Assembly (NCBI GenBank): GCA_963840855.1
Contig: CAWJBB010000033.1
Location: forward strand, 62,628-126,627
DNA from: an uncultured delta proteobacterium
GTDB taxonomy: Bacteria > Desulfobacterota > Binatia > UBA9968
DNA length: 64,000 bases
Reading direction: 5' to 3'
The notes beneath the pieces are model-generated. The model was not told the DNA's origin and did no database searches. It saw only the letters and a list, made by a program, of their open reading frames with translations. The position numbers and the translations under genes are program-made. Of the stretch, positions 4,251 through 64,000 are shown piece by piece; the first letter of the stretch is position 1; every line of letters begins with the position of its first letter.

Positions 4251-5927
4251 ATGAATTCTACCCCGATGTTAATGGGCGACGGTTTGCGCCGTAACGCCTG
4301 GAAGTTTCCGGTTAAAATTGCCGCGAAGGACCGCTTTCGTGAAATCAATTACGCCGATCTCAATGCGCGCGTTAATCAGCTCGCCCATGGCCTTTTGTCC
4401 TAGGCGTGCGCCGGGGCGATGCCGTCGCGCTGTCGGTTGGCAATCGCATCGAGCATCTGGAAATCGTGTTCGCCACGGCGAAGATCGGTGCCCTGGCGAT
4501 CCCCCTCGACGTCAAGTGGAAAGCGCTGGAACTCGCCGCCGTCATAGCGGCTCTCGAACCAGGATTCATCATCCTTCAGGAAGATTGTGCGCAAGAATTT
4601 GAGAAAGCGAAAGAACTCAGGGATCTGAGCGCTCGTCAAGGCTGTTTCGTTATCGCCGGATTACACTTATAGCGGATTGCTCCGCGGGCAAAGCCCGGAG
4701 GAACCCGATATTCACGTCCATGAAGACGATCCATTCGCGGTCATGCTCACCTCGGGCACGACCGGATTTCCCAAGGGCTGTCTGGCGACGCAGCGGACAT
4801 TTGTTTTCCATGTATAAACAATGCCATCGAGAAGGGGCTGGGCGCGGACGACAAAGCGATACTTTCGTCACCGATCTATTTCAATGCCGGACGCTCGTTC
4901 ACGCTTGGAATTATCTACTTCGGCGGTACCATGATCCTGCATGAACGGTTCGATGCCGAAGAAGTGCTGAAAACCATTGAAGCGTGAGAAAGTTACTTAC
5001 GTCGGCGCCGTGCCGATCATGTGCGAGCGCATGCTCCATGTATTGGAAACAACGCCGTACAACACCAGCTCGCTGCGTTGCCTGGCGATAACCGGCGGCA
5101 AAGTGCATCCGGCGGTGCTGGAAGCATTGAAGAAAAATCTTACGCCTAACATCTTCCGGACTTACGCTTCGACGGACTCCGGACAGATGGCGATATCGAA
5201 GCCGGACGATATGGCGGCGAAGGCACACGCCGCCGGCCGGCCCGTTTGGTGCGTAGATCTGCGCATCGTCGATGAAAACGATAAACCCGTGAGGGTTGGC
5301 GAGGTGGGTGAAATTATTTGTAAGAGCCCGCTGGCTACCCATGGCTATTACAAAAACCCCGAAGCGACCAACGCGTCGTTCCGCGATGGCTGGTTTTACA
5401 CGGGCGATCTCGGTTATTTCGACGAGGAAGGTTATCTCTTCGTCGCCGGGCGCAAGAAGGACATGGTGAAGAGCGGCGGCATCAGTATCTATCCGTTGGA
5501 GATCGAAAGCGTCATCTATAGCCATCCCGATATTTTGGAAGCCGCCGTGATCGGAGTGCCCGATCGACAATGGGGCGAGGCATTGAAGGCTGTTATTGTT
5601 CTCAAACAGGGTGCGAAAATCACCGGGGAGGAATTGCAGCGGTTTTGTAAGGAACGCCTCTCCTCGTACAAAGTTCCGAAGTCGGTGGACTTTGTTTCTT
5701 CGTTGCCGCACACCGAAGTGGGGAAGGTGAACAAGGTCAAGGTGAGGGAAATGATTCTCGACCGAGGCGAAGCGGTAAGGTGTGGCGAGATAATTTTTTC
5801 TCGGATCATAGCTTTTCCATCACTTCACGCGCAAAGCTTTCTAGCGTCGCTTGTTTTGATACTCCACATGGAACGATGGTCAGCTCGTCGATGCCGGCGG
5901 CGATATATCGCTTCACTTTCTCCCTGA
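4251..5927 (+). CDS. AMP-dependent acyl-CoA synthetase, several frameshifts (homology ends near 5770)
   Basis: TSGTTGFPKG motif near 4750; GWFYTGDLG, GRKKDMVKSGG and GKVNK motifs in ORF 4977-5927. Confidence 0.85.
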
Positions 5928-6310
5928 CTTCATCCGGCGTGCCGGCGAGAGCGAACCGGTCCACCCATTCCTGCCGCACCAGGTAATCATGCTCCGGCCC
6001 CATATGATGGTAGGAGTCGTAGTGTTGGCGCAACCGCTCCACCGCTTGGCGGTCGGCTTGGTCGTCGAGTTCGCCGCGATTATACGACCTTCCCAGATGC
6101 GTGAACGCGGCACGGGCGACGATGCCTTTGACACTTTCCCGTGCTCGCTGTCCGTCGGCGCTGATGGCGCAAGGCATTCGATAGATGAACTGCACGGCCG
6201 TTGATGGTCTGTTGGCCTCTGCCGTGAAGGCGCGAATGTTTTCGATCAACGGCTTAGCGGATTCTCCGCATTTGGCTACCCCCATGACCGTTTATTCTGT
6301 CCGCCAATAA
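5806..6310 (-). pseudogene. C-terminal half of an LLM-class flavin/F420-dependent oxidoreductase
   Basis: DRFALAGTPDEVREKVKRYIAAGIDE C-terminal signature; about 160 aa only, with no room for the N-terminal half before the divergent gene at 6569. Confidence 0.65.
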
Positions 6311-6568
6311 AAGACGAGGCAAATAAAAAGACAACAAAGGTCCGTCAACAATAAACATCAAAACTTGCTTGACGGCAAAATGCTTCCCGATGTACTCCTT
6401 TACAGGCCGTCGATTGGCGCCGTCCCAAGCCCTGGGGCCGGCGCTAAGTCCGCAGAAACACGTTGACCAGAACGATGTTAAAGAGACCACGAAAGAGTTA
6501 GGATCGCATTAGCAGGAGTAACGCCAAGCGAACAATTGATTGCGGTATTTAAGGAAGGAGCGTGTATT

Positions 6569-10268: not shown

Positions 10269-11399
10269 ATGAAACTACGCACGCCTTTGTGTGATCTGTT
10301 GGGCATCGAAGTTCCGATTATTCAGGCCGGCATGGGGTGGGATAAGGAAGGGATGACGACACCGCCGGCGCTGGTGGCGGCGGTGTCGAACGCGGGTGGA
10401 TTGGGATGTATCGGCGGCAGCTCGATCCGTCCGGAAGTGATTCGCGAGCGGATTCGCGCCGTGCGCCAATTGACGGACAGGCCGTTCGGCGTCGATATCA
10501 CCTTGCCGAAGATGGAAGACGTGAGAATCCCCGACCCGGACGAAGTGCGCAAGGAGATCGAAGAAAAATATCCCAAGCACGCCAAATTTACCGACGAGCT
10601 GCTGCCCAAGCTGGGATTACAGCCGCAACCGCCGGACCGAAAGAGCTGGGTAAAAACCCCGGCGGCGACGCGGGAACAATTAAAAGTGATACTTGAAGAA
10701 AAGGCGCCGATTCTGATCATCGGCCTGGGCGATACAGCGGAAGTCGTGCCGCTGGCCCACGAGAGAGGTATCAAGGTCATGGCGCTGGCGGGCGCGGTAA
10801 AGCACGCGCTCAGCCACGCGCGTAAGGGCGCCGATGTCATCATCGCCCAGGGCTATGAAGCAGGCGGTCACACGGGAACGATCGCTAATTTTCCGTTGAT
10901 TCCCCAGATTGTCGACGCCGTGAAACCGAAACCGGTGGTCGCCGCCGGCGGCATATCCGACGGCCGGGGCGTTGCTGCGGCGCTGGCGCTGGGGGCGGTG
11001 GGTGTTTGGTGCGGCACGACCTTCCTGGTGAGCAACGAATGCGGCATCCATCCCGCCTACAAAAGGCAAATTCTCAAAGGGACCTCGGAAGATTTCGTCC
11101 GCACGGCCTATACCAGCGGCCATTATGCCCGGCATTACCGGAGTGAGGTAATCCAAGCGTGGATGAATTCTGGACTGGAAGCGATGCCGACGCCGTATCA
11201 GGGCAACTCCATGGACGAAATTCGCCGCGCCGCGGAGGCGGCTGATCGGGTGGATTTATTGCATGTGCCCGGCGGCCAAGTGGCGGGCATGTTGAGCGAA
11301 GAAAAAAGTGCCCGGCCAGCCAGGGAAATCGTCGCGCGGATGGTTGAAGAGGCGGCGACGATCCTGAATAACATCCGCAGTTCATATGTGGGAGCATAG
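10269..11399 (+). CDS. Nitronate monooxygenase / FabK-like flavoenzyme
   Basis: PIIQAGMG, QGYEAGGH and AAGGISDGRG motifs. Confidence 0.85.
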   Translation: MKLRTPLCDLLGIEVPIIQAGMGWDKEGMTTPPALVAAVSNAGGLGCIGGSSIRPEVIRERIRAVRQLTDRPFGVDITLPKMEDVRIPDPDEVRKEIEEKYPKHAKFTDELLPKLGLQPQPPDRKSWVKTPAATREQLKVILEEKAPILIIGLGDTAEVVPLAHERGIKVMALAGAVKHALSHARKGADVIIAQGYEAGGHTGTIANFPLIPQIVDAVKPKPVVAAGGISDGRGVAAALALGAVGVWCGTTFLVSNECGIHPAYKRQILKGTSEDFVRTAYTSGHYARHYRSEVIQAWMNSGLEAMPTPYQGNSMDEIRRAAEAADRVDLLHVPGGQVAGMLSEEKSARPAREIVARMVEEAATILNNIRSSYVGA

Positions 11400-11409
11400 T
11401 GGCAATAAG

Positions 11410-13816
11410 ATGGATACACCCGTAGCATTCCTCAAAGGTTTCAGAGCGCTGGATTTAACCGGCTTGAGCGGCCAGCTATGCGGCCGCATCCTCGGCGACT
11501 TAGGCATGGAAGTGATCAAGATCGAGCCGCCGGGGGGCGACCCGGTGCGGAATCTTGCGCCGTTCGTAACATCTCCCGATGGCAAAACATTGAGCACGGT
11601 GTTCGCCCATCTGAACGCCGGCAAGTCGAGCAAGGTACTCGACTTGGACAAAGAGTCTGACCGCGCGGCGTTCAAAGGGCTGGTCGAGACGGCGGACGTC
11701 GTGCTAGAAAGCTTTCAGCCGGGGGAGTTGGACCGCCAGGACCTCGGTTACACAGATCTGGCGAGCATCAATCCCGGTGTCGTCATGGCCTCGATTACGG
11801 CCTTTGGCCAGACGGGGCCGAAGAAAAATCTCCTGTACAATGATCTCGTGGCGCTGGCCGAAAGCGGATTCTTATATATATCAGGCGATCCTTTATTAGC
11901 CGCCCTGTAGGCCACCGGAAACACAGGCATATTACTTTGCAAGTTTGTTTGCCGCGGCGGGCGTGTTGGCGGCGCTTTACCGGCGCGAGCGCACCGGGCA
12001 GGGCGATCACGTCGATGCGACGATGCAGGAGACACTGGCGACCCACGAGCATATCATTCGTCTCTATGCCAACGAGCAGCAAATTCTCAGGCGCGCCGGC
12101 AGCCAGCATGGCTCGGTGGCGCCGGCGAAAATCTTTCCGTGCAAAAATGGTTTTATTTATTTGTATGTAACCCGGCAACACTGGAAGTTATTTCTAGAAT
12201 TTTGGAAAGACCATCCGGCGCAGTTCGATGGCAAGGATTGGCTCAACAACGTATACCGGCGCTCGCACGCGGACGAATTAAATGCCGCCGTCGAGGCTTT
12301 TGTCGGCCAATACACGATGGCCGAGATTACCGACCTCTTGCAAGCTAAAGGCATCCCATGCGTTCCGGTCAACACGCCAACGGGTTTCGTTAACGACGAG
12401 CATGTGCAATCCCGGGGCTTCATGGTTACGGTGGACCACGCCGGCTTCGGCGCAACCAAACAGGCGGCGGCGCCTTTTGTTATCGACGGCGCGCGCCTGC
12501 CGGTAGGCAGCGTGCCGGTGTTGGATAGTTGGCGTTCTCCCTCTTACATCTCTCCCGTCGCGGGTGAGAGAAGAGAGGCGGCACCTCACAGGGAAAGAGA
12601 TTTGGACACCGGCAACGGTCCGCTCGACGGCATGCGTATCGTCAGCTTCGATCATGTCCTCGCCGGTCCCTATGGCACGACGATCCTGGCGGAGTTGGGT
12701 GCCGACGTCGTCAAAGTCGAATCGAGCAAAGGCGGCATGGACCCGTTTCGTTTTTTTGGCACCGGCGAAGATCCCAATCTCTCGCCGCGCTTTCTCGAAT
12801 TTAACCGCAATAAGCGGTCGTTCACCGTCAACCTTAAGCATCCGAAGGGCCAGGGGGTGCTGCACGATCTAGTCGCCAAGGCGGATGCCGTGCTGGATAA
12901 TTACAGCGTCGATGTCGTGGGGCGCATCGGGTTGGCATACGATCAGCTCTGTAAGGTAAAGCCGGATATCGTCAATTTGCGCATGCCGGGGCTCGGCACC
13001 ACCGGACCGAAGCGCCATTATTCCACGGTGGGTGTGAACATCACGTCGTTCACCGGTCTTACCTACATGTGGAATCATCCCGGCAATACTAACCCGCCCA
13101 TCGGTTCGCAGACGGTTTATCCCGATTATGTTTCCGGGGTGCTATGCGCGATCATTATTATTTCCGGTGTCCTCCATCGTGACCGCCAGAAGAAGGGGGC
13201 GTTCATCGACCTCGGGCAATCGGAAGCGACGGCGTTTATGATCGGCGCCAATTTGATGGAAGCCGCCGCCAGTGGAAAAGACCCTGAGCCCATCGGCAAT
13301 GCTTCGTTCTCCGTCGCGCCGCATGATTGCTATCCCTGCACGGGCGAGGACCGCTGGTGCGTCCTCGCCGCGGAAACCGATGCGCAGTGGATCGCGCTGG
13401 CGCGAATTGTCGGCGGCGGCATCGAGCAGGACGACCGTTTCAAAACCAACCCCGACCGGCTCAAACATCGCGCGGCGCTCAATGCGCTCATCGAGCAGTG
13501 GACCAAAAACAAAGATGCGTTCGAGGTCAGAGACCGGCTGCAAACGGCGGGCGTTCCCTGCGGCGTCGTGCAAACCGGCGAAGATTTATGCAATGATCCT
13601 CAGCTCAAGGAACGCGGCTTCATCGTCGCCGTGGAAAATCCTCGCCTTGGCCGCGTCGTGCTGCCCAATTTTCCGTTGCAGTTTAACAATGCGAAACTCA
13701 CAAGGCGATGGGAGTTCCCCGTGCTTGGCCGCGACACTGAGGCAGTGCTGCGCGATGTCGTCGGCTACAGTCCTGAAACGATTGCGGAGTATAAAAGAGA
13801 CGGTGTGCTGGATTAG
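11410..13816 (+). CDS. Fused two-domain family III CoA-transferase (CaiB/BaiF), frameshift near 11905
   Basis: Two CaiB-type N-terminal motifs (LGMEVIKIEPPGGD and LGADVVKVES...NRNKRS) across ORFs 11386-11910 and 11945-13816. Confidence 0.85.
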
Positions 13817-16334: not shown

Positions 16335-19300
16335 CTAAGCCTTCAAAGCGTTGTTGCCGGCGATCAACGTGCGCAGATTCTCGAGGTTTGCCGGTTTCAG
16401 GAAGTACTGATCGATAGCGGCGCTTTTGCGATCTGTCGAAACGTCTTCCCGCAGCCAGCCTGAAACCGCCACAATTAACGAGTTGGGCAGCTCGCGGCGC
16501 AGGCGTTCGGCGACTTCGTAACCGTCAACGTCCGGCAAATCGATATCGAGGCAAATAATATCCGGGACGAACTCAAGCGCCGTTTCGACCGCTGTTTTGC
16601 CGGTGTAAGCCGTCCGCGCCACGTGTCCATCCAGACGCACCGATTCGGCCAGCGACTCGGCGGCATCGATATTGTCGTCGACGACTAGAATACGCCGACC
16701 CGGTGCGGCGACGGCTGGCGTTGGGCCTGGCTCCGCCGCTCTCGTTGGCGGCAAAGCACTCTGATCCGTAGCGAGTGGCAATTGTACGACGAATTCACTT
16801 CCTTGTCCTTCGCCTGCGCTATGTGCCCAAACTTGCCCGCCGTGCATTTCCACCAACTGCTTAACCAGGCTCAACCCGATGCCGAGTCCCCCGCGCCTGG
16901 TCTCGGCTTGCTTGAACATGTCGAAGACATTCGGCAGAAACTCCGGCGCGATGCCCCTGCCATTGTCACGCAACCGAATAACGATTTGGCCCCCGTTACG
17001 GGCGGCGTTGAGTGAAATACGCCCCCCGGGCCGGTATATTTCGCGGCGTTATCCAGAAGGTTCGTCAGGACCTGCGCCAGGCGCGCCGAATCGGCGTCGA
17101 GATAAATCGTTTCAGGCGGCAGTGTAACGGTGAGCGTATGGCCGGCTTCGTCCAATGCCGGGCGGGCTGCTTTCCAGCGCCAAATTCACCACCGACGCCA
17201 GACTGACTCGTTGCGTGCGCAGGTCGAGCTTCCCCTGGGAGATCCGCGAAACCTGGAGCAGGTCATCCACCAACCGGTGTAGCTGGTCGGCCTGTCGTTC
17301 CGCCATACTCCAAATCCGCGCTAGCCTCTCCGGGTTGTCCGAGCGATTCTGGATGTCGAAGACCCCGCGCAATACCTGGAGGGGGTTACGCAGCTCATGA
17401 GAAAGCAATGCCAAAAACTCATCCTTGCGCCGGTCGGCCTCTCGCACGGCGTGCTCCATTTGCCGGCGCTCGGTGATATCCACGAAGGTCGCCACCACAC
17501 CGTCGATATGCTCTTGCAGCGTTCGGTAGGGGAAAACCCGGACCATGAACCAATGATTGTCGCTCGCGCGCACTTCGCGTTCGATGGGTTGCGACGTTTC
17601 GAGAACTTCGGCAAGGTCTGCCGTCAAGCTTCCGTAATCGAGCTTGTGTGTCACATGTTCCAGGGGCCGCCCGATATCGGTGTTAATAAGGTTGAAAAGC
17701 TTCTGCGTCCGCGGTGTGTAGCGTTTGACCCGGAGATCGCGGTCGAGAAAGATCGTCGCGATATCGGTGGAGGATATGAGATTTCGCAGATCCGTGTTGG
17801 CGCGGCCGCCTTCGTCGATGGTCTCTTTCAATTCTTGGTTGACCGTCGTCAATTCCTCATTGACCGATTGCAATTCCTCCTTGCCGGTCTCGAGCTCTTC
17901 GCCGGTCGAGCGCAGCTCCTCGTTCATCGCCAGCAGTTCTTCGTTGGACGCTTTGAGCTCTTCGACGGACAGCTCATGCTCTTCGACGGTGCCGCGCAGC
18001 CGGTCCTTGGTGCGTTGCAGCTCTTCTTCGAGACCGCGCACGAGGGTTTCTATCGCTTTGTCGCTCTCCAGGGCGGCCTGCGCCGAGGGCGCCAGTTCCC
18101 GTAGCGCCGCGGGCGACCGGATCTCATCGAAAATCACCAGGTAAAGGCCCTGGACGGCCCCGCTTGTCCCCAAACTGGGACGAACTATTAGATTTACCAG
18201 CCGCTGCTCACCGCTTAACGAGACGCGCAGGTTGGGCGTCTCGATCTGGTGATTTTTCTGCTTGGCTGTGATGAATGTGTTACGCAGATCGAGCCGGAGG
18301 GCGGGAGGGGCGATAGCGAATAAATTATACGACGGCTGGCCGCCCGGGAGCTGCAAATAACGGCCGGCATGTTGGCTCAAGTGAAGAATATCTCCCTCTT
18401 CGTTGACGAGCACGCTCGGCGGCGCGTATTCCTCGACGAGTATATGATGCAGGTTGCCAAGCGAAAGATCTTGGTGCTTGTGCGCGGCCGGCGGCTCTGG
18501 AAGTCGTATTTTCCACTCGCCGGTAAGCGGCATCGGCGGGTGTTGCGCCACGCTCGGCAATGCCCGGTAGATCCGGTTTTTCTTGTCCAAGGGAGCGAAA
18601 AGGGAAGCCGCCCCCTCGGCTGACTCGGACGCCCCCAAAAAAAGAAAACCGCCCTGTCGCAATACAAAATGTAAGACTCGCAGCAGGAGGTCCTGCGTGT
18701 TGCGGTTGAGATAGATCAACAAATTGCGGCAAGTGATCAGATCGATGCGCGAAAACGGCGGATCGCGCAGCAGGTTATGCGGCGCGAATAAAATCGAATC
18801 GCGCAATTCTTTCTTAACGATGTAGTTCTGTCCCTCCTTGACGAAAAACCGGCGCAGCCTTTCAGGGGAAAGATCGGCGGCGATGATTTCGTTGTAGCGG
18901 CAGTCGCGCGCCGTGGCGAGGGCGTCGGCGTCGATATCGGTGGCGAATATTTGAATTTTTGGAGGGTCAGCCAAGCGGGCTGCGTGCTCGTGCAGGAGAA
19001 TCGCTATGGAATAGGCCTCTTCCCCCGTGGCGCAACCGGCCACCCAGACCCGAACCTGCTCGGCCGAGGTCTTGTCGGCGAATATTTGCGGCACTACCTG
19101 TTGCTCCAGCGATTTGTAGGCGTCCTTGTCGCGGAAGAAATTGGTCACGGTGATCAAAAGATCGGAGAGCAGAGGCTGCATTTCCTCGGGATGACGGCGC
19201 AGATAGTCGATATATTCGTTCACGTCCGCCAGGTCGTGGACCTGCACCCGCCGGCTGATGCGCCGCCCGATGGTGGGCCGCTTGTAGTTCGAAAAGTCGT

Positions 19301-20033
19301 GCCCCGACCTTATGCGCAGCATGGCCAAGACTTCTCGAATCGGGTCCGCCCCGGCGGGAGCTTTCTCTTCCTCATGAGCGTCTTCCGATAGCTGGATCCG
19401 GTTCGCGCTCAGCTTGAGGGCCACCAGCTTTGCCGGGATCTCGGCGGCCGGCAGAATCAAATCCACGAGGTTGGTGGCGATGGCGCTGCGCGGCATGGAG
19501 TCATACTCGGCGTCGGCGGGGTCCTGGGCGATGGCGATGCCGCCGTCTTCCTTGATACGCTTGAGGCCGAGGGTGCCGTCGGACCCTGTCCCGGAGAGTA
19601 TCACGCAGATGGCGTTTCTCCCGTAAGCGGCGGCCAGGGTGCGCAGAAATACGTCGATGGGCACGCGCCGGCCGCGCGTCGCCTCCGGCTCGGTGAGCCG
19701 AACCTCGCCGTCCATCATGGCCAGATACTTGCCGGGCGGGATGACGTAGACGTGGTTGGGCTCGATCTTGAGCGTCTCGGTGACTTCGACGACCGGCAAG
19801 GAAGTGCTCGTCTGCAGAATCGCCGCCAGGTTGCTCGCGTGTTCGGGGGAAAGGTGGACGACCACGACGAATGCCATGCCGGTGTCGCCGGCCGTTTTTT
19901 CAAAAAAATGCCTGAGCGCGATAAGGCCGCCGGCCGATGCGCCGATGCCGACGACCGTGCATTGCGGCGTCACCGCCGCTTCAGACTGCTGCGGATCGGC
20001 TAGTAGGGTGGTAAGGTTGTCTTCATCGCCCAT
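16335..20033 (-). CDS. CheB/CheR-PAS hybrid histidine kinase with receiver domain, frameshifts near 17150 and 17000
   Basis: CheB triad (GASAGG, VVHL, GTGSDG), CheR (VTNFFRD, GCATGEE, CRNLLIY), coiled coil, PAS, HisKA SHELRNP, HATPase NLLDNAAKY/GLGIGL, receiver VVDD...KP. Confidence 0.88.
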
Positions 20034-25503: not shown

Positions 25504-27291
25504 ATGAAACGAACCGTTCGCTCCTACCTAAGACCTTACTGGACTGACTTTTGTTTTTGCGCTCGCTCAGGTACTCTTCATTAGCGCACTGGAGCTTCTC
25601 AAGCCCTGGCCGCTTAAGATCATCATTGACAATGTTTTGAGCGGAAACCCTCTGTCATGGGAATTTGCTCTTAACTGGTCGTCACAGACTCTGCTCTTGG
25701 TGGCTTGCGTGGGTCTGGTTCTTATTTATCTTCTCTTCGGCGGACTGCGCATCCTTAACGATTATACAACCATCAGGATTGGACAGAGGCATGGTGAACG
25801 ATCTTCGTCGGGATCTCTACAGCCAAATACAACGCCTCTCGCTCTCTTTCCATAACCGCCAGCAAGTCGGGGATCTCATGTATCGGATCACTGCCGACAC
25901 AATGGGGATCCAAACGCTCACGATGAACGGACTTTTTGCAATCCTCTCGGCTTCTGTCCTCTTGACCGGAATGTTTGTCATCATGCTTTCGCTGGACTGG
26001 TATCTCACGCTGCTGGCGTCTGGCTGTGTGTCCGGCGCTCTTCGGTGCCATCGGGCTTCTAGATAGGAAAATGTCCTCTGCTGCAACGCAGGCTCGGCAG
26101 AAAGAAAGCATGGTCTATTCTCTGGTCCAGCGAACGCTCTCAGGAATACGCGTGATCCAAGCCTTTACAAAAGAAGAGGACGAGGAGCGGCGCTTTCTCA
26201 AAGCCAGCACCGAGAGCCTGGCCGCTAATTTGCGGCTCTACAATCTGCAAAATTTTTATTCTGCGGTGGTGAACGTCACTATCGCCGCTGGAACGGCCGC
26301 TGTTCTGTGGGTGGGCACCCGGCACGTTTTGTCCGGGGAGCTCTCGATAGGCGAAATGGTCGTCTTTACTTCTTATCTGGCCTCTCTGTACGCCCCACTC
26401 AGCAATATTTTCGAGACCTACGGATTGGTTCAGAGCGCAAAGGTCGGTGTTCGAAGGGCATTCGAAATTTTGGAATCGGAGAGAGAGCCTGTCAGAGGGG
26501 CGTAGAGCTTTCGGGACCAATGGAGCCGAAAGGACGAGATCTCGTTCGAACGACGTTTCATTTGGCTATGATGCTTCACGGCCGATTCTAAAAAAGATTA
26601 ACCTTCGCGTTGCGCCGGGAGAGAAAATCGCGATTGTTGGCCCGACCGGAGCGGGAAAATCACGTTGGTCAGTCTTTTGCCGCGTTTTTACGATCCTCAG
26701 TCGGGCCGTGTGACGATCGATGGGATAGATATCCGAGAATTCCAGCTCAAGTCCCTGCGCCGGCAAATCGCGATGGTTCTTCAACCTCCTCTCCTGTTTC
26801 CTTTCACGATCCGCGAAAATATCGCTTACGGCCGACCTGAAGCTTCGATGGAAGAAATCGTCTCTGCAGCACAGGTGGCGCAGGTCCACGAATTTATCGA
26901 GCAGCTTCCGCAAAAATATGACACTATGGTCAGCGAGCAAGGATCCACCTTGTCGGAAGGACAGAAATTGCGCCTCACGATCGCACGCGGGATCTTGCTT
27001 AATGCTCCCATACTGATTCTGGACGAGCCCACTTCTTCCGTGGATTCGGAGACCGAGGCGCTCATCATGGACGGGCTGGAGCATCTAATGGCCGGCAGGA
27101 CCACTTTCATTATCGCCCACCGTCTATCCACCGTTCGGCAAGCCGATCTCATTCTAGTCCTGTGCGACGGTCAGATTGTTGAACAAGGCACATTTGGCGA
27201 GTTGCTGCGTCGGCGTGGCCCGTTTGCATCGCTGTATCGGACTCAGTTTGGACTGCACGAAGAAAGTCGAAACTTTCGGGTCGTAAAATAA
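25504..27291 (+). CDS. ABC transporter permease/ATP-binding protein (MsbA-like exporter), frameshifted
   Basis: [12 protein letters not shown]-terminus, transmembrane segments, [20 protein letters not shown]. Confidence 0.85.
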
Positions 27292-28013
27292 TGGAGCGCG
27301 AGATGACAGGAATCCCCGATCTGAATGACCCTCGCTATCTAGATGAGATTGGTTGGTTTCTTTACCACGAGAAGTACGGTCGCGATCAATTCGGCGGCTC
27401 CTATGACGCCGAGCGACGCGTCATACTCGCGGCTGCTGCTCGAGGAAGTCGTCGGCTTTTTGGGCCAGGATACAAAATGGATGGAGGGCAAGACCGTCGT
27501 CAGCATCGGCTGCGGCTGCACCGGTGACCTATCCGCCTTTCCTGCGGCCGTCAAAATCGCGATCGATCCGCTTCTTTATGTCTACCAGAAACTCGGAATG
27601 TTGACGGACGATGCGCCGGTGACCGGACGATCTATCTTTCCATGGGCGCCGAGAATCTCCCCCTGCTGGACGAGTTCGCCGATCTGGTGATATGCCGGAA
27701 CGCTCTCGATCATATGCCCGACCCGTCGATTACGACGAAAGAACTGTGGAGGATCCTGAAAAAGGACGGAGCGCTGTTCGTAAGCGTCGATATCGGCGGA
27801 GCGCCGACTCCGGATGAGCCCACCGTATTTTCCCTGGAAAGCCTTCGCAGTCTTCTCAGGGATCAGTTCGAAGTGGTGGCGCTGGCGGACAACTGCTCCC
27901 CGCACAGCGAGGGGCGACTCCGCAGTGTCAGACTTCTAGCGCGAAAAAAATTCCTAGCGAGCCCTGCGCTGGATAAGGCGGCAATTCTGCGGGCCTACGA
28001 AGCTCGTCTGTAG
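27291..28013 (+). CDS. Class I SAM-dependent methyltransferase, frameshifted
   Basis: VSIGCG motif I; DLVICRNALDH; LWRILKKDG. Confidence 0.75.
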
Positions 28014-36987: not shown

Positions 36988-38869
36988 TTATCCAGCCATC
37001 GCAGCGACTTTGTCGCGCATAGGAACGCCACTGCTACGTCGCGCCGATTCGGGCACGGCGGTCACTTCCACGATGGAGGAGGGCCCGCTCCCATTGGACC
37101 GTACCAGAAGCTGGCGAGCGTGGAAGGCACGTAGCGTCGCGCGATGGCCCACGCTGAACACGGTCGTCCCCGCGAGCCGCTCGCGCACCAGCCGATAGAG
37201 GCGGCGCCTCCGTAGCCTCATCCACCGCCGAGGTCGCCTCGTCGAGGAAGAGCCAATCCGGCTTCTGGACGAGCGCGCGAGCAAAGGCGATGCGTTGCTG
37301 TTCGCCGGGGGAAAGTTGAAGCGCCCAATGGCCGGCCTCGTCGAGCCGCTCGGCCAGCTCAGGGAGCCCCACTGCCTCCAGCGCCTCGCCCAGTGTCGCG
37401 TCGTCCACGCCGCCTGTTGGCATCGGATAACTCACCACTTCCCGGAGCGTGCCGATCGGCAGGTAGGGCTTCTGCGGCAGAAAGAGGATCCGGGCGTCGC
37501 GCGACCCGCGGATCTCGCCGTGCCCAAACGGCCAGATTCCGGCGATCGCACGGAGGAGCGTACTCTTCCCCGAACCCGAAGCTCCTCCCAGGAGAACGGT
37601 GTCTCCGCGCAAGAGCGAGAGATTCACATCCGCGATGAGCGGCTGTCCATCGGGGAGATAGAGATCCACACCCTCCACTGTCAAGTGGGTGGCGTCCCCG
37701 TCGACGCGCCGGACGCCGCCGCCGGTCGCCGCCTGGATGCGCACGCGCTCTAGCGCGCGCTCGAACCCGGAGAGCCGCTCCACCACCGAGCACCATGCAG
37801 CGATCTCCTTATACGAGTTGACAAAGAAGCTGAGCGAATCCTGTACCTGGCTGAAGGCCCCGATGGTCTGCATGAGCCCTCCGAGCGCAAGCTCGCCCCG
37901 GAAATAGCGCGGCGCCGCGACGACGGACGGGAAAATCCACGCCGCTTGTCCATAGCCGGCAGTGAAGTAGGTCAGCCGTTTCTGCCGGCGCATGATGTTC
38001 CACCAGTTCGCAACCACCGCCTCGAATCGTTCGCGGAAACCACGGAACTCGTCCGCCTCGCCGCGGTAGAGCGCTACACCCTCGGTGTTCTCGCGGAAGC
38101 GGACTAGGCCGAAACGGAAGTCGGCTTCACAACGCTGCTTGTCGAAGTTCAGCCGCACAAGCGGGCGACCGATCCAGTGAGTGAGCCATGTGCCGGCGAT
38201 AGCGTACACGAGGGCCGCCCATACCAAGTAGCCGGGCAAGGTGAGCGGAGGACCCGCCAAGGGGGACGGTGAGCGTTCCGGAGAGCGCCCAGAGGATCGC
38301 CACAAAGGTGACCAAAGTTACCAGCCGCGCGCAAGCCTCCCATGAGGAGAGCGAGGGTGTGGGAAATAAGGAGGTGAACGTCTTCGGCGATGCGCTGGTC
38401 GGGATTGTCGGTTTCAGCCGCCACGAGTTGCATCCGATAGTAGGCACCGTCGGCCAACCAAGCGCGGAGGTAACGTTCGGTAAGCCAGCGCCGCCAGCGG
38501 ATCTCGAGCATCTGGTTAAGGTAAAGCTGGTAGACGGCGAACAGGATGATAAAGGCCCACAAGCCAGCAGACGCGGATCAGCTGTTGGAGAAAGATTGTT
38601 TGGTTTTTGTTCTGCAGGGCGGTGAAAAAGGCGTTATTCCACTGATTGAAGAGAACATTGATGTAAACCATGCCGAGGGTGAGTGCGACGACGACGAGGA
38701 GCAGCCCCCAGGCCGCCCAGCGGTCCTCCGAGGACCAGTACGGGCGGATCATGGCCCATGCGGTAGGAAGCAGTCGGCGCAGGCGAGTTGTGGCTGGATC
38801 TTCCGCGCGATTGAGAGCGATCGCGCTAGTTGGGCCTATGCTGGCGCGACCAACGACCGGATGGACCAT
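36988..38869 (-). CDS. ABC transporter permease/ATPase, YddA/BacA-like (ABCD-type), frameshifted
   Basis: PYWSSEDR, DNPDQRIAED, EADFRFGLVRFRENTE, GASGSGKST, LSPGEQQR and FLDEATS motifs. Confidence 0.85.
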
Positions 38870-38912
38870 TCGTCCCTGCCGATCACCAATGGCAGAATTT
38901 TTCGATTCGTTC

Positions 38913-40026
38913 TTATTGTTCCGTTGCCTGCGCACTAGTCACCTCCGCAGACTCTTTATGTGTTACTTTTCCGTTTGGCGATTCGCCGATTTCTCGTAAC
39001 AAGACCGCCAAAGTAGCTGCTCGTGCCTGCCTGTTGGAGACGACTGAGCCCGCTGTGATACATACGGCATCCCACAGAGGATTCGCGCTACTATCCACAG
39101 ACTTCCGCCAATCAATGTTTTCGAGGAGCTTAAGTTTTTGTTGCCAATCATCGGGATATTTTTCGAGCAACGTTCTGCCGACGCCACCGAGAGCACGTAA
39201 AACGACCGCATGAGTATTGATTTTGTCCTGACGGAGTTCGGAAGCGCTCAATTCTCCACTTTTGACTTTCTGCCACTCGTCGATGATGTTCGAAAGCTCG
39301 GTCCAGTATTCGACAGCAGTCTTCAGCGCTGCTTTATAGCCCGGCGACCCCGGTTTATCGATGTTTCTACCCAGCAGCTCTTCATTCGCCTCGTATAAAG
39401 CTGCAATTGTAAAAAGCTTAGGCGACCTGAGCGGGATCGTAACCTTCTCTTTGTCCACTGTGCCTCGAAATACATCCACCCGCTCTGTTACTTCCATGGT
39501 TATTGAAGAAAGGCTATCTCGATGATCATAGAGAATACCCAGCGACTTTGAGGTCTGCTGCACGAACCGATTTAGATCTGAAAACATTTGTTGCAGCCGC
39601 TCCAAACTTTCCGTCTCAAAGAGGAGCACCGAAATTTTTTCCTTGCCAAGCGCAGGATTCTCTTTGAGTGCAGCGGCGATCGCGGCGCAACGATGCTGGC
39701 CATCGTTGATAATGAACTCAATGTTTTCCAGCTCCATTTCTAACTCGCCAACGTCGGGGTTTCCTGTTGAAGGGACGAATTTCACAGGACACGAGTAGGA
39801 CGCTGTGATCGACGAAAAGAGATATCCGTTTCCATTATCCAATATGTATTTCGCGATATCCGGAACCCGTCCTTTATTCAGAACTCTTTGCGCGCGCAGC
39901 TCCGGAGTGACACTTTTCCCAATCGTTGAATTTAAACAAACGAGGAATTTCTGAAAGCGAAATCAGCAACGAATAGTAATGCCGCCAACCCATATTTCCC
40001 CGCATAACTGGAAAACTAACTTTCAT
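38913..40026 (-). CDS. dndB: DNA sulfur modification protein DndB / DGQHR domain protein, frameshift near 39915
   Basis: INDGQHR, RAQR.LN..RV..IA.YI, YLFSSITAS and QQMFSDLN motifs; ATG 40026 with GGAGG upstream. Confidence 0.85.
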
Positions 40027-40063
40027 GACTGGACAAAACCTCCGCATTCTATCTTGCTCGGGA

Positions 40064-40179
40064 GAGCTGGAACATATCAGCCATACAGCTCTATGTCAAT
40101 GAGTCAACAGCTGTTTTCCCAGAACGGACCAGCTGTGGACAGGTAGCAATACAGCTCCAGCTGGACAATAGCCGAGCTG
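40064..40179. repeat. Six SAGCTS sites phased at exactly 22 bp
   Basis: AGCT cores start at 40065, 40087, 40109, 40131, 40153 and 40175. Confidence 0.85.
40071..40099 (-). promoter_or_regulatory. Sigma70 promoter of dndB
   Basis: TTGACA-N17-TATGTT with an extended -10 TGn on the minus strand. Confidence 0.7.
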
Positions 40180-40394
40180 TGCACGCTTTCGGCGTCCCCT
40201 CTCGGACAGGGCTTTTGGCATGCTAACTATGCAATTTAAATACTAATTTATGTAGGGGGGACGTGCCAGCTCTAGTAGACTCTTCGCGGTATGCCGCTGC
40301 CGCCGCCGCTTTCGCACGCGATTTCTTGATTCAGACCTCGTGTTGCGTCGGCTTCTAGAGCTCGTCTGTATGTAAGATCCTTCAGCCGTCTATC

Positions 40395-41504: not shown

Positions 41505-43863
41505 CTACTTCCAATCGCGCACTTCAGGCATGTCTTCGCCGTGGCGCGTGATGTAGTGCGAGTGTTCCGTTAGCTTGTCGCGCATGAGCTGTTTGAGATA
41601 GGCCGCGCGGTAACCCAACTTGGGCACCCGGTTGACCACGTCCATCACCAGATGGAAGCGGTCGAGATCGTTTCTCACCGCCATGTCGAAAGGCGTCGTC
41701 GTTGTGCCTTCTTCTTTATAGCCGCGCACGTGCAAATTTTTATGATTGGTACGCCGGTAGGTGAGGCGGTGAATCAGCCAGGGATAGCCATGATACGCGA
41801 AAATAACCGGTTTGTCCGTGGTGAACAGGCTGTCAAAATCCCAGCGGGTAGCCCTTGAGGATGCTCGCTCGCGCGGCTGCAGCGTCATCAAATCCACGAT
41901 ATTGATCATTCTGATTTTTAATTCCGGCGCATGCTGGCGCAAAAGCTCGATGGCCGCCAGGATTTCCACCGTAGGGCACGTCGCCGGCGGCGGCCATGAC
42001 GACATCGGGTTCGCCGGCCGGTCGTTGCTCGCCCAGTCCCAGATGCCAATGCCGGTGGCGCAGTGCTTGATCGCCTGAATCGATATTGAGCCACTGAGGC
42101 TGTGGTTGCTTGCCGGCGACGATGACGTTGACGAAGTTGCGCGAGCGCAGGCACCAATCGGTAATATAGAGCAGCGTGTTGGCGTCCGGCGGCGAGAAAA
42201 ACACGGATGATGTCGGCTTTCTTGTTCACGACGAGATCGATGAAACCTGGGTACTGATGGGAAAAACCGTTGTGGTCTTGGCGCCAGACATGGGAGGTAA
42301 GAAGGATAGTTCAACGAAGCAATGGGGCGGCGCCAGGGGATTTCTTTGGCGACTTTGAGCCATTTGGAGTGCTGATTGAACATCGAATCGACGATGTGGA
42401 TAAACGCCTCGTAGCAGGAGAATAATCCATGCCGCCCGGTGAGCAGATAACCTTCGAGCCAGCCCTGGCAGGTATGCTCGAAGAGAGAATTTCCATCACC
42501 CGGCCGTCCGGAGCGAGATGATCATCTTCGGGGATTGTTTCCGCCAACCATGTTCGAGCTGTGGCCTCGAACAGAGCGTCGAGCCGGTTCGAGGCAGTCT
42601 CGTCGGGACCGACGACGCGGAAGTTGCGCGACGCTGAATTCAACTTCATCACGTCGCGCAAGTAGTTGCCCATGACGCGGGTCGATTCCGCTTGCGCACC
42701 GCCAGGTTCAGCTACCTTGATGGCGTAGTCGTCGAAAGTCCGGCAATTTGAGATCTCGCAGCAGCATGCCGCCGTTGGCGTGCGGATTGCCGCCCATGCG
42801 CCGCGCGCCTTCAGGCGCCAGGGCGCGCAGATGCGCTTTCGGCTGCCATCTTCGTCGAACAGTTCATCCGGCCGGTAGCCCTTCATCCAGTCTTCCAGCA
42901 GCTTGAGATGGTTATTGTTGGAGGCCATGTCGGCGACAGGCACTTGGTGCGAACGCCAATGGCCTTCGGTTGATCTTGCCGTCCACCTCCTTGGGTCCCG
43001 TCCAACCCTTGGGTGTTTTAAGCACGATCATCGGCCAGCGTGGCCGCTCGACCTTGGCGTCGTCGCGGGCGGCTCGCTGGATCGCGTGAATCTTATCGAA
43101 TATCCGATCTAAGGTTGCCGCCATCGCTTCGTGCACGAGTTCCGGGTTCGCGCCCTCCACCCAGAGAGGGTTCATAGCCGTAGCCGATCAACAGGCTGTC
43201 CAGCTCCGCTCGTGTGATTCGCGCCAGCAAAGTAGGGTTGGCGATTTTGTAACCGTTTAAGTGCAGGATCGGCAGCACCGCGCCGTCGCGCGCCGGGTTC
43301 AAGAACTTGTTCGAGTGCCAGGCCGCAGCCAGCGGTCCCGTTTCCGCCTCGCCGTCGCCGATGACACAGGCGACGATCAAATCCGGATTATCAAACGCCG
43401 CGCCGAAAGCATGGGCCAGCGAGTAACCGAGTTCGCCGCCTTCATGAATCGATCCCGTCGTTTCTGGCGTCACATGGCTGCCGATACCGCCGGGAAAAGA
43501 GAATTGCTTGAAAAGTTGCTTCATGCCATCGGCGTTTTGCGGCAAGCTAGGATAAAGTTCGGTGTAACTGCCTTCGAGCCAGGTGCTAGCCACGAGCGCC
43601 GGTCCGCCATGGCCGGGGCCGGCGATATAGATCATATTGAGATCGCGCGCTTTGATAATGCGGTTTAAGTGCGCGTAAATAAAATTCAGCCCCGGCGAGG
43701 TGCCCCAGTGGCCGAGCAGCCGCGGTTTGACATGCTCGATCTTGAGCGGGTCCTTGAGGAGCGGATTGTCGAGCAAATAAATCTGTCCGACCGATAAGTA
43801 ATTGGCCGCGCGCCAGTAGGCGTCGATGGCTTTCAGTTCCTGATCGGAAAGCGTCCGTTGCAT
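41505..43863 (-). CDS. xfp: Phosphoketolase (XFP family), several frameshifts
   Basis: [42 protein letters not shown] and [14 protein letters not shown] motifs. Confidence 0.92.
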
Positions 43864-62100: not shown

Positions 62101-64000
62101 CGAAATTCTCGCCCGTTTTCTTTCCAATAGCAGTGTAATTCTTTGGTTTGTCAAGGCATTTGGGGTTTTGGCACCCGGCATGTGTTCCCATGTATGAGGC
62201 TTGCATTCAGTAGTAATATCTGCTATTGAGTTGCCATGTATATCGAAATAGTCCCGAACCGCGTTCCCCGCCCGCCGTGCTCCTGCGCGAGGGGTCGCGC
62301 GAAGGCAACAAGATCTGCAAACGCACGCTTGCCAACCTCACCGCTGGTAGCAGGCGGGCATCGATGCCCTTCGCCGCGTGCTCAAGGACGAGCCTGTGCT
62401 CAGCGCGCAGGATGCCTTTGTTGTTGAACGCTCGTTGCCTCATGGCCATGTGCAGGCAGTCCTGGAGGCGCTCAAGCGCATCGGCCTGGACACCTTGATC
62501 GGACAAGCGCTCGCGCGAGCGCGACCTGGTGCTGGCCATGATCGTGGAGCGGCTCATCCATCCGTGCTCGAAGTTGGCCACCACCCGGCTCTGGCACAGC
62601 AGCACCCTGGCTGAGGAATTACGGTGGGCGATGCCACCGAAGACGATCTGTACGAAGCGATGGATTGGCTGCTTGAGAGGCAATCGCGCATCGAGCACAA
62701 GCTTGCCGCCCGCCACCTGGGGCAGGGCGCGCAGGTGCTCTATGACGTCACCAGTAGCTACTACGAAGGGCGAACTTGCCCCTTGATGCGCTTTGGCCAT
62801 GACCGCGATGGTAAAACCGGTCGCCCCATTGTGGTCTACGGGGTATTGACCCATGCGCAAGGGCGCCCCATTGCCCTGCAAGTTTATCCGGGCAACACCG
62901 GGGACCCCAGTACCGTGCCCGATCAGGTGTACAAACTGCGCGAGCAGTTTGGTCTGCAACAGGTGGTGCTGGTGGGCGATCGTGGCATGCTCACGCAAAC
63001 GCAGATCGATAAGCTCAAGCAGTACCCGGGGCTGGGATGGATCAGCGCTACGCTCTTCGGCGATTCGGGACTTGGTCCAAGCCGGCACGTTGCAGCTCTC
63101 GTTGTTCGATGAACAGAATCTGGCCGAGATAAGTTCGCCTGAGTTTGCGGGCGAGCGGCTCATCGCCTGTCATAACCCGCTGCTGGCTGAGGAGCGGGCG
63201 CGCAAGCGCGAGGAGTTGCTCAAGGCTACTGAAAAGGCGCTCGAGCGCATTGCTCGCCAGGTGCACCGGCGCACCAAGACTCCTTTGACGGCAGCCGAGA
63301 TCGGCCAGAAAGCCGGCGCGGTGGTCAATCGCTTCAAGATGGGCAAGCACATGGAGTTGACGATCAAGGACGGCGCGTTTGGCTATGCGCGGCGGTCACA
63401 AAACATTGAACGCGAGGCCGCACTCGACGGTATCTATGTCATCCGCACCAGCGAACCGCCCAGTCGTCTATCGGCTGCGGATACGGTGCGCAGCTACAAG
63501 ATCTGGCGCAGGTGGAACGCGCCTTTCGCTGTCTAAAAGGCATCGATATTCTGGTGCGCCCGATTCGTCACCGCGACGAACAACGCGTCAAGGCACATCT
63601 GTTCTTGTGCATGCTTGCCTATTACGTGGAGTGGCATATGCGCAGGGCCCTCGCCCGCTTCTTCGACGACGAGCAACTGGATCAAGATCGTAAGACCCGC
63701 GATCCGGTGGCAGCGGCCAAGCCCTCTGCCTCGGCAAAAAAGAAAAAGGCTCTGCGTGTTACCACCGAGGGCCTGCCGATTCACAGCTTTAACTCTGTTG
63801 GCAGAACTCGCCACGCGTTGCCGCAACCGCTGCCGAATCAAGTCCGATCCCAAAAGCCCCACGCTCTCTCACCTTACCGAACCGACACCCCTGCAACAAC
63901 GAGCCTTCGAACTGCTACAACTGTTGCCAGTAACGGGAAGTTCGCATTCCTGAAACCGCACCTCAAATCAATACGTTAACTCTAAAACGCTGCGGGAACT
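62095..64000 (+). mobile_element. IS1634-family element with a frameshifted transposase (62236-63953); right end just beyond the window
   Basis: MYIEIVPNR...KRTLANL, LYDVTSSYYEG, VGDRGM, LDGIYVIRTS, ERAFR.LK and RVKAHLFLCMLAY motifs; the window end GCGGGAACT partly mirrors the left end CTAGTCCGAAATTCTCGC. Confidence 0.88.

Follow-up and report, generated by a model that had tools for sequence, protein, structure and literature searches.

We analysed a stretch of 64,000 nucleotides from an uncultured delta proteobacterium (GTDB lineage Bacteria; Desulfobacterota; Binatia; UBA9968; assembly GCA_963840855.1, contig CAWJBB010000033.1, forward-strand positions 62,628 to 126,627; hereafter the window, numbered from its first letter). 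In it, an array of AGCT cores spaced by two helical turns lies over the promoter of a gene for a DndB-like protein, a relative of the repressor of DNA phosphorothioation (dnd) operons. The array overlaps this promoter, is conserved with the gene across phyla, and was seen at no other place in the DNA examined; most likely, it is a conserved site through which the gene itself is controlled. We consider it probable, though well short of certain, that the DndB-like protein, with its predicted ParB-like fold, binds the array cooperatively as an operator and so regulates its own gene.

The AGCT cores start at 40065, 40087, 40109, 40131, 40153, and 40175, in steps of exactly 22 bp, and all six read SAGCTS (S being C or G), as the original prediction had described. 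A seventh SAGCTS, missing from that description, lies off phase at 40158-40163. Two further sequence features of the array proved to be real: units 2 and 5 have the 13-mer AGCMATACAGCTC in common (40079-40091 and 40145-40157, 92% in a repeat search), and unit 3 contains the palindrome AACAGCTGTT (40106-40115). The window holds 93 SAGCTS sites (~1 per 688 bp, with a shuffle mean of 72.3), and the presence of seven within 116 bp is a strong local excess. The phasing was evaluated with a chain test over all 256 4-mers at exact periods of 8 to 60, which allows for the free choice of both motif and period. The longest chain in the window was AGCT at a period of 22, with six units; the runner-up had four. 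Among 30 dinucleotide-type shuffles, a chain of four was reached in 13 and a chain of five in none. AGCT chains of three or more at 21-23 bp steps were seen in the window only at the array. The shuffles and the global k-mer/period test rule out a chance origin of the array, bearing out the expectation that such phasing would rarely arise at random. Separately, a loose cluster of five SAGCTS sites with 42-bp periodic TCTT/CTTC chains is located at 17892-18023, within a CheB/CheR histidine-kinase gene, and is probably a coding repeat.

A promoter scan of the minus strand recovered the predicted TTGACA-N17-TATGTT promoter, which matches at 10 of 12 hexamer positions and has a TG preceding the -10 hexamer. 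As had been proposed, the array overlaps it: one core falls within the spacer (40087-40090), another is near the start site, 2 nt beyond the -10 hexamer (40065-40068), and four are upstream (Table 1).

The gene that follows this promoter is, as anticipated, an orphan gene of the DndB/DGQHR type. Its C-terminal frame matches Pfam PF14072 (DndB) with 277.3 bits against a cutoff of 29.1 (E 2e-82), and no dndC, dndD, or dndE family was found among the 62 window proteins scanned (64 kb). The protein contains INDGQHRC, and residues D108, G109, Q110, H111, and R112 are invariant in 56 sequences. In NCBIfam, the same frame scored 310.2 bits with TIGR03233 (cutoff 328) and 197.6 bits with the DGQHR model TIGR03187; it remains below the TIGR03233 cutoff because a frameshift cuts off its N-terminus. 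The intact homolog P0002 reached 342.8 bits with this DndB equivalog model and was also matched by the PADLOC DndB model. In the window gene, the first 50 codons are in a different frame from the rest, with the change at 39905-39915. A database homolog, P0030, carries an alternative frame over the same N-terminal stretch (FRFQRFL...NSTIG), pointing either to another, independent break of the frame or to another sequencing error there. The window has more genes that are split or begin in the middle of a profile: the phosphoketolase gene (41508-43863) is in three pieces, and further cases lie at 37034-38935, 11386-13816, 16335-20033, 25975-27291, 27343-28013, and 4977-5927, the products affected being two ABC transporters, a CoA-transferase, the CheB/CheR histidine kinase, a methyltransferase, and an AMP-binding enzyme. 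These splits reflect either an indel-rich assembly or widespread pseudogenes. Because there are so many of them, a true pseudogene and an assembly error are indistinguishable for the DndB-like gene of the window.

A search by sequence returned no solved structure for the DndB-like protein. An AlphaFold2 model built from a diverse 56-sequence alignment had a predicted local distance difference test (pLDDT) score of 89.3; an earlier model from 18 near-identical sequences (pLDDT 40.9) was discarded. The model suggests a ParB-like fold: in Foldseek, the solved structures that match it best are Noc, ParB, and KorB, with a probability of 0.96-0.99 among the first five. These matches agree with the ParB/Srx fold assigned to DGQHR/DndB in the accessible part of PMC11662687. 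By eye, the GQHR residues fit the GxxR phosphate box.

We then turned to homologs. At least 4155 proteins, among 8000 candidates scored, matched at E 1e-3 or better, and the best 120 database clusters were 81-95% identical, with lengths of 350-417 amino acids (aa), mostly 358 or 369. From a scan of one genome per species we obtained 80 loci (designated by L numbers), each comprising 5 kb on either side of the gene; 79 had upstream DNA, and together they amount to 794,015 bp. The closest loci, at 79-87% identity, mainly carry the titles Candidatus Binatia or 'uncultured delta proteobacterium'. Those at 47-65% come from Acidobacteriota, Pseudomonadota, Verrucomicrobiota, Chloroflexota, Nitrospirota, Bacteroidota, Planctomycetota, and others, and the most distant, at 36-41%, are mostly from Nitrosopumilaceae archaea.

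Uninterrupted chains of at least four cores occurred 35 times in these loci, in every case upstream of the DndB-like gene. All but one end 15-96 bp ahead of the start of the DndB match; the chain of L054 ends 466 bp ahead of it. (In L054, the DndB gene was called as two open reading frames, and within 4469-5000 the array and a leader are followed by ~470 bp, which begin with a different ATG-led frame, before the match.) As controls, 20,000 random 303-bp windows were drawn from the same loci, and none reached even three phased cores. No second array was detected in the ~858 kb formed by the loci and the window. Within the Binatia-type clade of the tree described below (15 rows, including that of the window), 13 rows have an uninterrupted chain of four or more cores, the two exceptions being an interrupted array (L005) and a locus with no upstream DNA (L012). 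The Binatia-type chains hold 4-7 cores in steps of 21-23 bp and lie just upstream of the gene. If one skipped site is allowed, at least four phased cores are present in 41 of the 79 loci, three in 4, and two or fewer in the other 34. The search for a periodic motif upstream of homologs, which had been put forward as a check, thus revealed a 22-bp AGCT lattice under at least nine phylum labels that occurs at no other place in the 794 kb of locus DNA.

The inter-core steps measured 22 bp in 124 cases, 23 bp in 22, and 21 bp in 15, with a mean of 22.0 bp. Across 85 Binatia sites and 112 others, information content was 2 bits at each AGCT position and ~0.7-1.15 bits at the flanking S; the remaining positions of the unit had 0.0-0.45 bit, with a weak preference for A/T midway between cores. 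Only AGCT, the flanking S, and the promoter hexamers are kept between genomes. Because the rest of the unit is unconserved, the cores and their spacing appear to be held by selection rather than by recent common descent.

The placement relative to the promoter is also retained. In 13 of 15 Binatia-type regions, the array follows the register TTGnnn-N3-AGCT, and the next core follows the -10 hexamer (in L001, the first match to this pattern is spurious and the genuine one is further downstream). In 18 of 27 regions from the other clades, the register is AGCT-N1-2-TTGnn, in which a -35-like hexamer starts 1-2 nt past one core and the next core comes just before the -10. A few of the first register matches are not the promoter-proximal one. 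A strict search for TTGACA-N16-18-TATAAT matched 14 of 42 homolog regions, some of them spuriously; it was too stringent, and the simpler register patterns were used instead.

In some lineages, the 22-bp lattice carries other cores: GATGTC three times in L024 (~2550-2640), AGACTC three times in L028 (~4860-4940), GAGCGG four times in L049 (~4830-4920), GGCTC in L041 (~4850-4930), and AACTC/GAGTT in L022 (~4850-4960). These loci retain the promoter placement along with the lattice, and they are natural specificity variants. Since the core changes with the lineage while the lattice and the promoter stay, the pattern agrees with a cis-encoded binder.

A quick maximum-likelihood tree of 74 protein rows separated a clade of 10 rows from one of 64, with a support of 100 in the SH-like approximate likelihood ratio test (SH-aLRT). 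The smaller clade consists of archaea together with L067 and L071; none of its 10 rows has the array, and the rows examined have dndC, dndD, and dndE downstream. These three genes are also present in the archaeal loci L068-L080. The array is likewise absent from all four bacterial plasmid loci with annotated dndBCDE. In the 64-row clade, which is not linked to dnd, 35 rows have an uninterrupted array, among them members of all major subclades and of at least nine phylum labels, and no dndC, dndD, or dndE lies within 5 kb in the Binatia loci. The tree is at odds with taxonomy, which suggests horizontal transfer. A 51%-identical copy on a 15-kb plasmid of Neorhizobium sp. SOG26 (L081, NZ_CP025514.1) has the array and lacks dndCDE. 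On this plasmid, which carries a MobQ relaxase, the array-bearing gene is flanked by a TIR-domain gene on one side and by a CopG gene on the other, with two N-6 DNA methylase genes beyond the CopG gene (L081 5866-13355).

Many loci have no neighbour in common, and the sole constant partner of the array across loci is the DndB-like gene. The original prediction had seen in the gene and its array a self-contained DGQHR-plus-array module. This view holds insofar as the two stay together while their neighbours change; it does not strictly apply to the Binatia loci, in which an ABC-transporter gene overlaps the stop codon of the DndB-like gene.

From the overlap of the array with the promoter and from its persistence with the gene across loci, we infer that the DndB-like protein binds its own promoter and represses it, presumably in a cooperative manner and with a nucleotide as the signal. 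In the cooperative operator that we favour, each copy of the protein encoded downstream, with its putative nucleotide-binding DGQHR domain of the ParB/Srx fold, would read one short palindromic core, (C/G)AGCT(C/G). With the cores two helical turns apart, the bound copies would sit on roughly one face of the DNA and touch each other, and these lateral contacts could supply the specificity that a 4-6-bp site alone would not. The resulting nucleoprotein stretch of ~130 bp would cover the promoter from its -35 hexamer through the spacer and the -10 hexamer to the start site, and its occupancy from ~-112 to ~+1 would occlude RNA polymerase and turn transcription off. If canonical DndB is a guide, release is probably tuned by the binding of a nucleotide, ATP or GTP. 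In the Binatia, including the window, the same promoter would also drive the overlapping gene for an SbmA/BacA-type ABC transporter, which is probably co-transcribed, and the DndB-like protein would be the regulator of a small operon unrelated to phosphorothioation.

Several observations weigh against this reading. The 34 of 79 loci with no more than two phased AGCT cores include array-poor subclades within the non-dnd clade itself, both in Verrucomicrobiota (L051, L053, L055, and L077) and in Planctomycetota (L044, L056, L058, and L066). Given these loci and whole subclades without it, the array is not obligatory for the family. For a specific binding site, a palindrome of 4-6 bp is remarkably short, and no element that reads DNA was recognised. 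The fold matches are weak (E 4.5e-3 to 0.1, template modelling (TM) score 0.21-0.25 on the query). Comparison of AGCT-core with variant-core proteins gave no consistent specificity residue; positions 330-331 alone differ, in two of the four variant-core proteins (L024 and L022). The frameshift in the window gene, if real, would leave the array here without its binder. Finally, the known Salmonella DndB operator has two boxes, unlike the 6-7 AGCT cores on a 22-bp lattice over ~130 bp seen here, and its motif TACG-N10-CGTA does not occur at 40027-40394 with up to one mismatch, the 13 occurrences in the whole window being the chance level.

A broader proposal, which we offer tentatively and think less likely to be right than wrong, is that the non-dnd DndB-like clade constitutes a portable nucleotide-gated transcription switch that has spread horizontally with its own loading array, forming a phased filament or a train of clamps over the promoter. 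The lattice would then be older than the spread across at least nine phyla, its cores would have been re-specified in some lineages, and its cargo would have been exchanged. Candidate cargoes are the ABC transporter, a 790-aa protein of no assigned family together with a DNA methyltransferase, and small open reading frames.

These recurrent neighbours also bear on the question of which protein reads the array. A different factor acting in trans could be the reader, whether a regulator of the host, a nucleoid protein, or a neighbour's product, with the DndB-like gene only the target. The core is short enough for many proteins, and some lineages do have recurrent neighbours (the ~790-aa protein, the DNA methyltransferase, and an open reading frame of ~100 aa). 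However, no neighbouring gene is constant across the array-bearing loci, a common host factor is unlikely for at least nine phylum labels, and the lack of a second array in ~858 kb and the tracking of variant cores with the gene lineage likewise speak against an outside factor. We regard this explanation as unlikely.

The array had also been suggested to be centromere-like or iteron-like, and it might serve as a centromere or clamp-loading site for segregation, spreading, or distant silencing, with promoter control secondary. ParB, Noc, and KorB are the best structural matches, the GQHR residues fit the GxxR box, and a 22-bp period is typical of plasmid iterons; in addition, one array-bearing copy is on a 15-kb plasmid, and the tree conflicts with taxonomy. 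This suggestion finds no support in the surroundings and the anatomy of the array. No ParA or Rep family is present among the 62 window proteins, none recurs beside the gene in the loci, and most copies reside in chromosomal contigs of 0.1-6 Mb. Furthermore, the conserved part of each unit is 4-6 bp, compared to 16 bp for parS or 17-22 bp for iterons, and the register of the array is locked to the gene's own -35 and -10 hexamers. We therefore hold a primary role in segregation or loading to be quite improbable.

Nor do we put much weight on the idea that the AGCT cores are targets of DNA modification, forming an epigenetic switch that the DndB-like protein senses or competes for. AGCT and CAGCTG are classic methyltransferase targets, an N6/N4-type DNA methyltransferase is encoded within 5 kb of the gene in 12 loci, and two N-6 methylase genes lie downstream of the Neorhizobium plasmid copy. 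In Streptomyces lividans, phosphorothioate-modified sites are related to dndB expression, according to the part of PMC8569181 that was available. Against this, no DNA methyltransferase family was found in the window, where the methyltransferase-domain matches are of small-molecule types (NodS and Methyltransf_11/23/25), and no methyltransferase recurs in the Binatia loci. GATGTC and AGACTC are not palindromic methylation sites, and a methylation target needs no exact helical phasing. Modification as the basis of the array is very unlikely in our judgement.

In a subclade outside the Binatia, 29 loci (among L026-L077 and L081) have a conserved 5' leader with nested stems, ~30-110 nt before the start codon (for example, L038 4926-5009). 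In its outer stem, a GAGCUC after the promoter pairs with a GAGCUC by the ribosome-binding site. Compensatory changes are seen at columns 10/80 (GC in 20, CG in 7) and 13/77 (CG in 23, UA in 5), as in Verrucomicrobiota, where GAGUUC is paired with GAACUC. An inner hairpin, UGAGCG-loop-CGCUCU, is located 28-56 nt before the ATG. The leader persists in Verrucomicrobiota loci that lack the AGCT array. Under the broader, tentative proposal above, the reuse of the word GAGCTC in the mRNA leader of this one subclade would point to regulation that acts on RNA as well as on DNA. That the cores of the array themselves work by base pairing, in an RNA leader structure or a DNA cruciform, and not through a bound protein strikes us as highly improbable: beyond the compensated stem of that other subclade, the two promoter-proximal cores are, by eye, mutually complementary in several Binatia loci, but five of the six window cores are upstream of the predicted start and the sixth is at it, the flanks of adjacent cores are complementary in 113 and 110 of 164 pairs where composition alone predicts ~55-60%, the leader is absent from the window and the other Binatia, and neither the array nor the homologs' leaders gave an Rfam match.

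As for the genes around the array, nine Binatia loci have an unbroken SbmA/BacA-type ABC-transporter gene, encoding 638-646 aa, that overlaps the DndB gene. In Acidobacteriota and others, the DndB-like gene is followed by the gene for the ~790-aa protein, with an N6/N4 DNA methyltransferase (Type-II-like) nearby (L014-L019, L022-L025, L027, L031, L039, and L061; for example, L014 6122-8515 and 3558-4790). The ~790-aa protein has no match in Pfam, PADLOC, or NCBIfam, and the trio may be an undescribed modification or defence module. In four Alphaproteobacteria (L043, L047, L048, and L073), the ~100-aa open reading frame comes right after the DndB-like gene (~6107-6460); it matched no family in PADLOC, NCBIfam, or Pfam. 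One Rhizobiales locus has a tRNA gene (L048 4137-4208) at a distance of ~600 bp on the upstream side of the array, and one Verrucomicrobiota locus has an Acido-Lenti-1 RNA (46.3 bits, gathering score 37) on the minus strand, immediately upstream of its DndB-like promoter (L051 4756-4817). In the window, the interval between the array and the neighbouring SPFH gene contains an inverted repeat, CGTCCCCTCT / AGGGGGGACG, with its arms 51 nt apart (40193-40263), and a plus-strand promoter-like sequence, TTGGCA-18-AATACT (40215-40244). No intrinsic terminator was predicted after the SPFH gene.

Table 1. Positions of the array, promoter, and genes in the window
Feature	Position	Strand	Remark
Core 1, GAGCTG (plus-strand reading)	40064..40069	-	2 nt downstream of the -10 hexamer, approximately at the transcription start
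Core 2, CAGCTC	40086..40091	-	within the 17-nt promoter spacer, 3 nt past the -35 hexamer
Core 3, CAGCTG	40108..40113	-	middle of the palindrome AACAGCTGTT
Core 4, CAGCTG	40130..40135	-	
Core 5, CAGCTC	40152..40157	-	
Extra off-phase CAGCTG	40158..40163	-	6 bp from core 5
Core 6, GAGCTG	40174..40179	-	farthest core from the gene
-35 hexamer, TTGACA	40094..40099	-	promoter scan
-10 hexamer, TATGTT	40071..40076	-	promoter scan
Ribosome-binding site, GGAGG	40039..40043	-	12 nt ahead of the ATG, read from the sequence
DndB-like gene, N-terminal piece	39877..40026	-	ATG at 40026; frame hits a stop after the frameshift
Extra base (TG-T-C), cause of the frameshift	~39910	-	alignment with five Binatia homologs (column 56)
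DndB-like gene, C-terminal frame with DGQHR motif	38913..39917	-	Pfam DndB, E 2e-82
SbmA/BacA-type ABC-transporter gene	37034..38935	-	overlaps the DndB stop codon; at least two pieces here

The one role known so far for DndB is to repress phosphorothioation operons by way of two 18-bp boxes, and the present set of relatives without dnd partners, from soil and aquatic phyla, is much larger. Its members share a very unusual cis element, with up to seven palindromes of 4-6 bp at an exact two-turn spacing and locked to the promoter. The element is a concrete candidate for a DNA target of a ParB/Srx-fold protein outside chromosome segregation. It is also a natural system in which to study how specificity arises from minimal sites and their phasing, complete with natural variants that have other cores, and it gives a first functional handle on the conserved ABC-transporter operon of uncultured Binatia. 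Experiments are within reach, as there are three cultured carriers (Bosea spartocytisi, Sulfitobacter aestuarii, and the Neorhizobium plasmid). Our literature search found no published description of the phased array or of the non-dnd DndB-like clade, and binding of DNA by DndB is not addressed in the accessible parts of PMC12345140 and PMC10470545.

The array can be set beside several families of short repeats bound by proteins. MetJ on met-boxes, the omega repressor on its heptads, and ParR on parC all occupy arrays of very short repeats as phased cooperative dimers, often over a promoter, and owe their specificity to this cooperation. They are ribbon-helix-helix proteins on abutting units of 7-11 bp, unlike the ~370-aa protein with a predicted ParB-like fold considered here, whose cores are 22 bp apart with unconserved DNA between them. 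The iterons of R6K and RK2 have a period of ~22 bp and several direct units, and they sometimes autoregulate the adjacent gene. Iterons are conserved over most of the unit and lie at a replication origin beside a rep gene, whereas 4-6 bp are conserved here and the window has no rep gene. KorB of plasmid RK2, ParB, and Noc, the best, if weak, structural matches of the DndB-like protein, are nucleotide-gated DNA-binding proteins, and KorB is a transcriptional repressor. These proteins load at one 16-bp palindrome by means of a helix-turn-helix and then slide, whereas many minimal cores at a fixed phase are present here. In contrast to ParB-type clamps, there is no partner ATPase adjacent to the gene, no ParA-type family in the window, and none that recurs in the loci.

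The closest comparison is with DndB itself. In Salmonella enterica Cerro 87, DndB (DptB) represses its own dndBCDE promoter via two TACG-N10-CGTA boxes, as described in the available portion of PMC4507180. The accessible text of a preprint (10.1101/2025.10.10.680097) states that both ATP and GTP are bound by a DndB-like protein, and it describes repression by DndB as dependent on ATP. The window's protein belongs to the same family as Salmonella DndB, and in both cases short 4-bp palindromic elements lie over the gene's own promoter, with negative autoregulation predicted here. Unlike the Salmonella dnd system, the clade of the window is not linked to dndCDE, and the loci that are linked to dndBCDE lack the array. 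Autorepression by DndB is already known; judging from the sequences compared here, what would be new is DndB-type autoregulation through a multi-site phased operator, in a clade detached from phosphorothioation.

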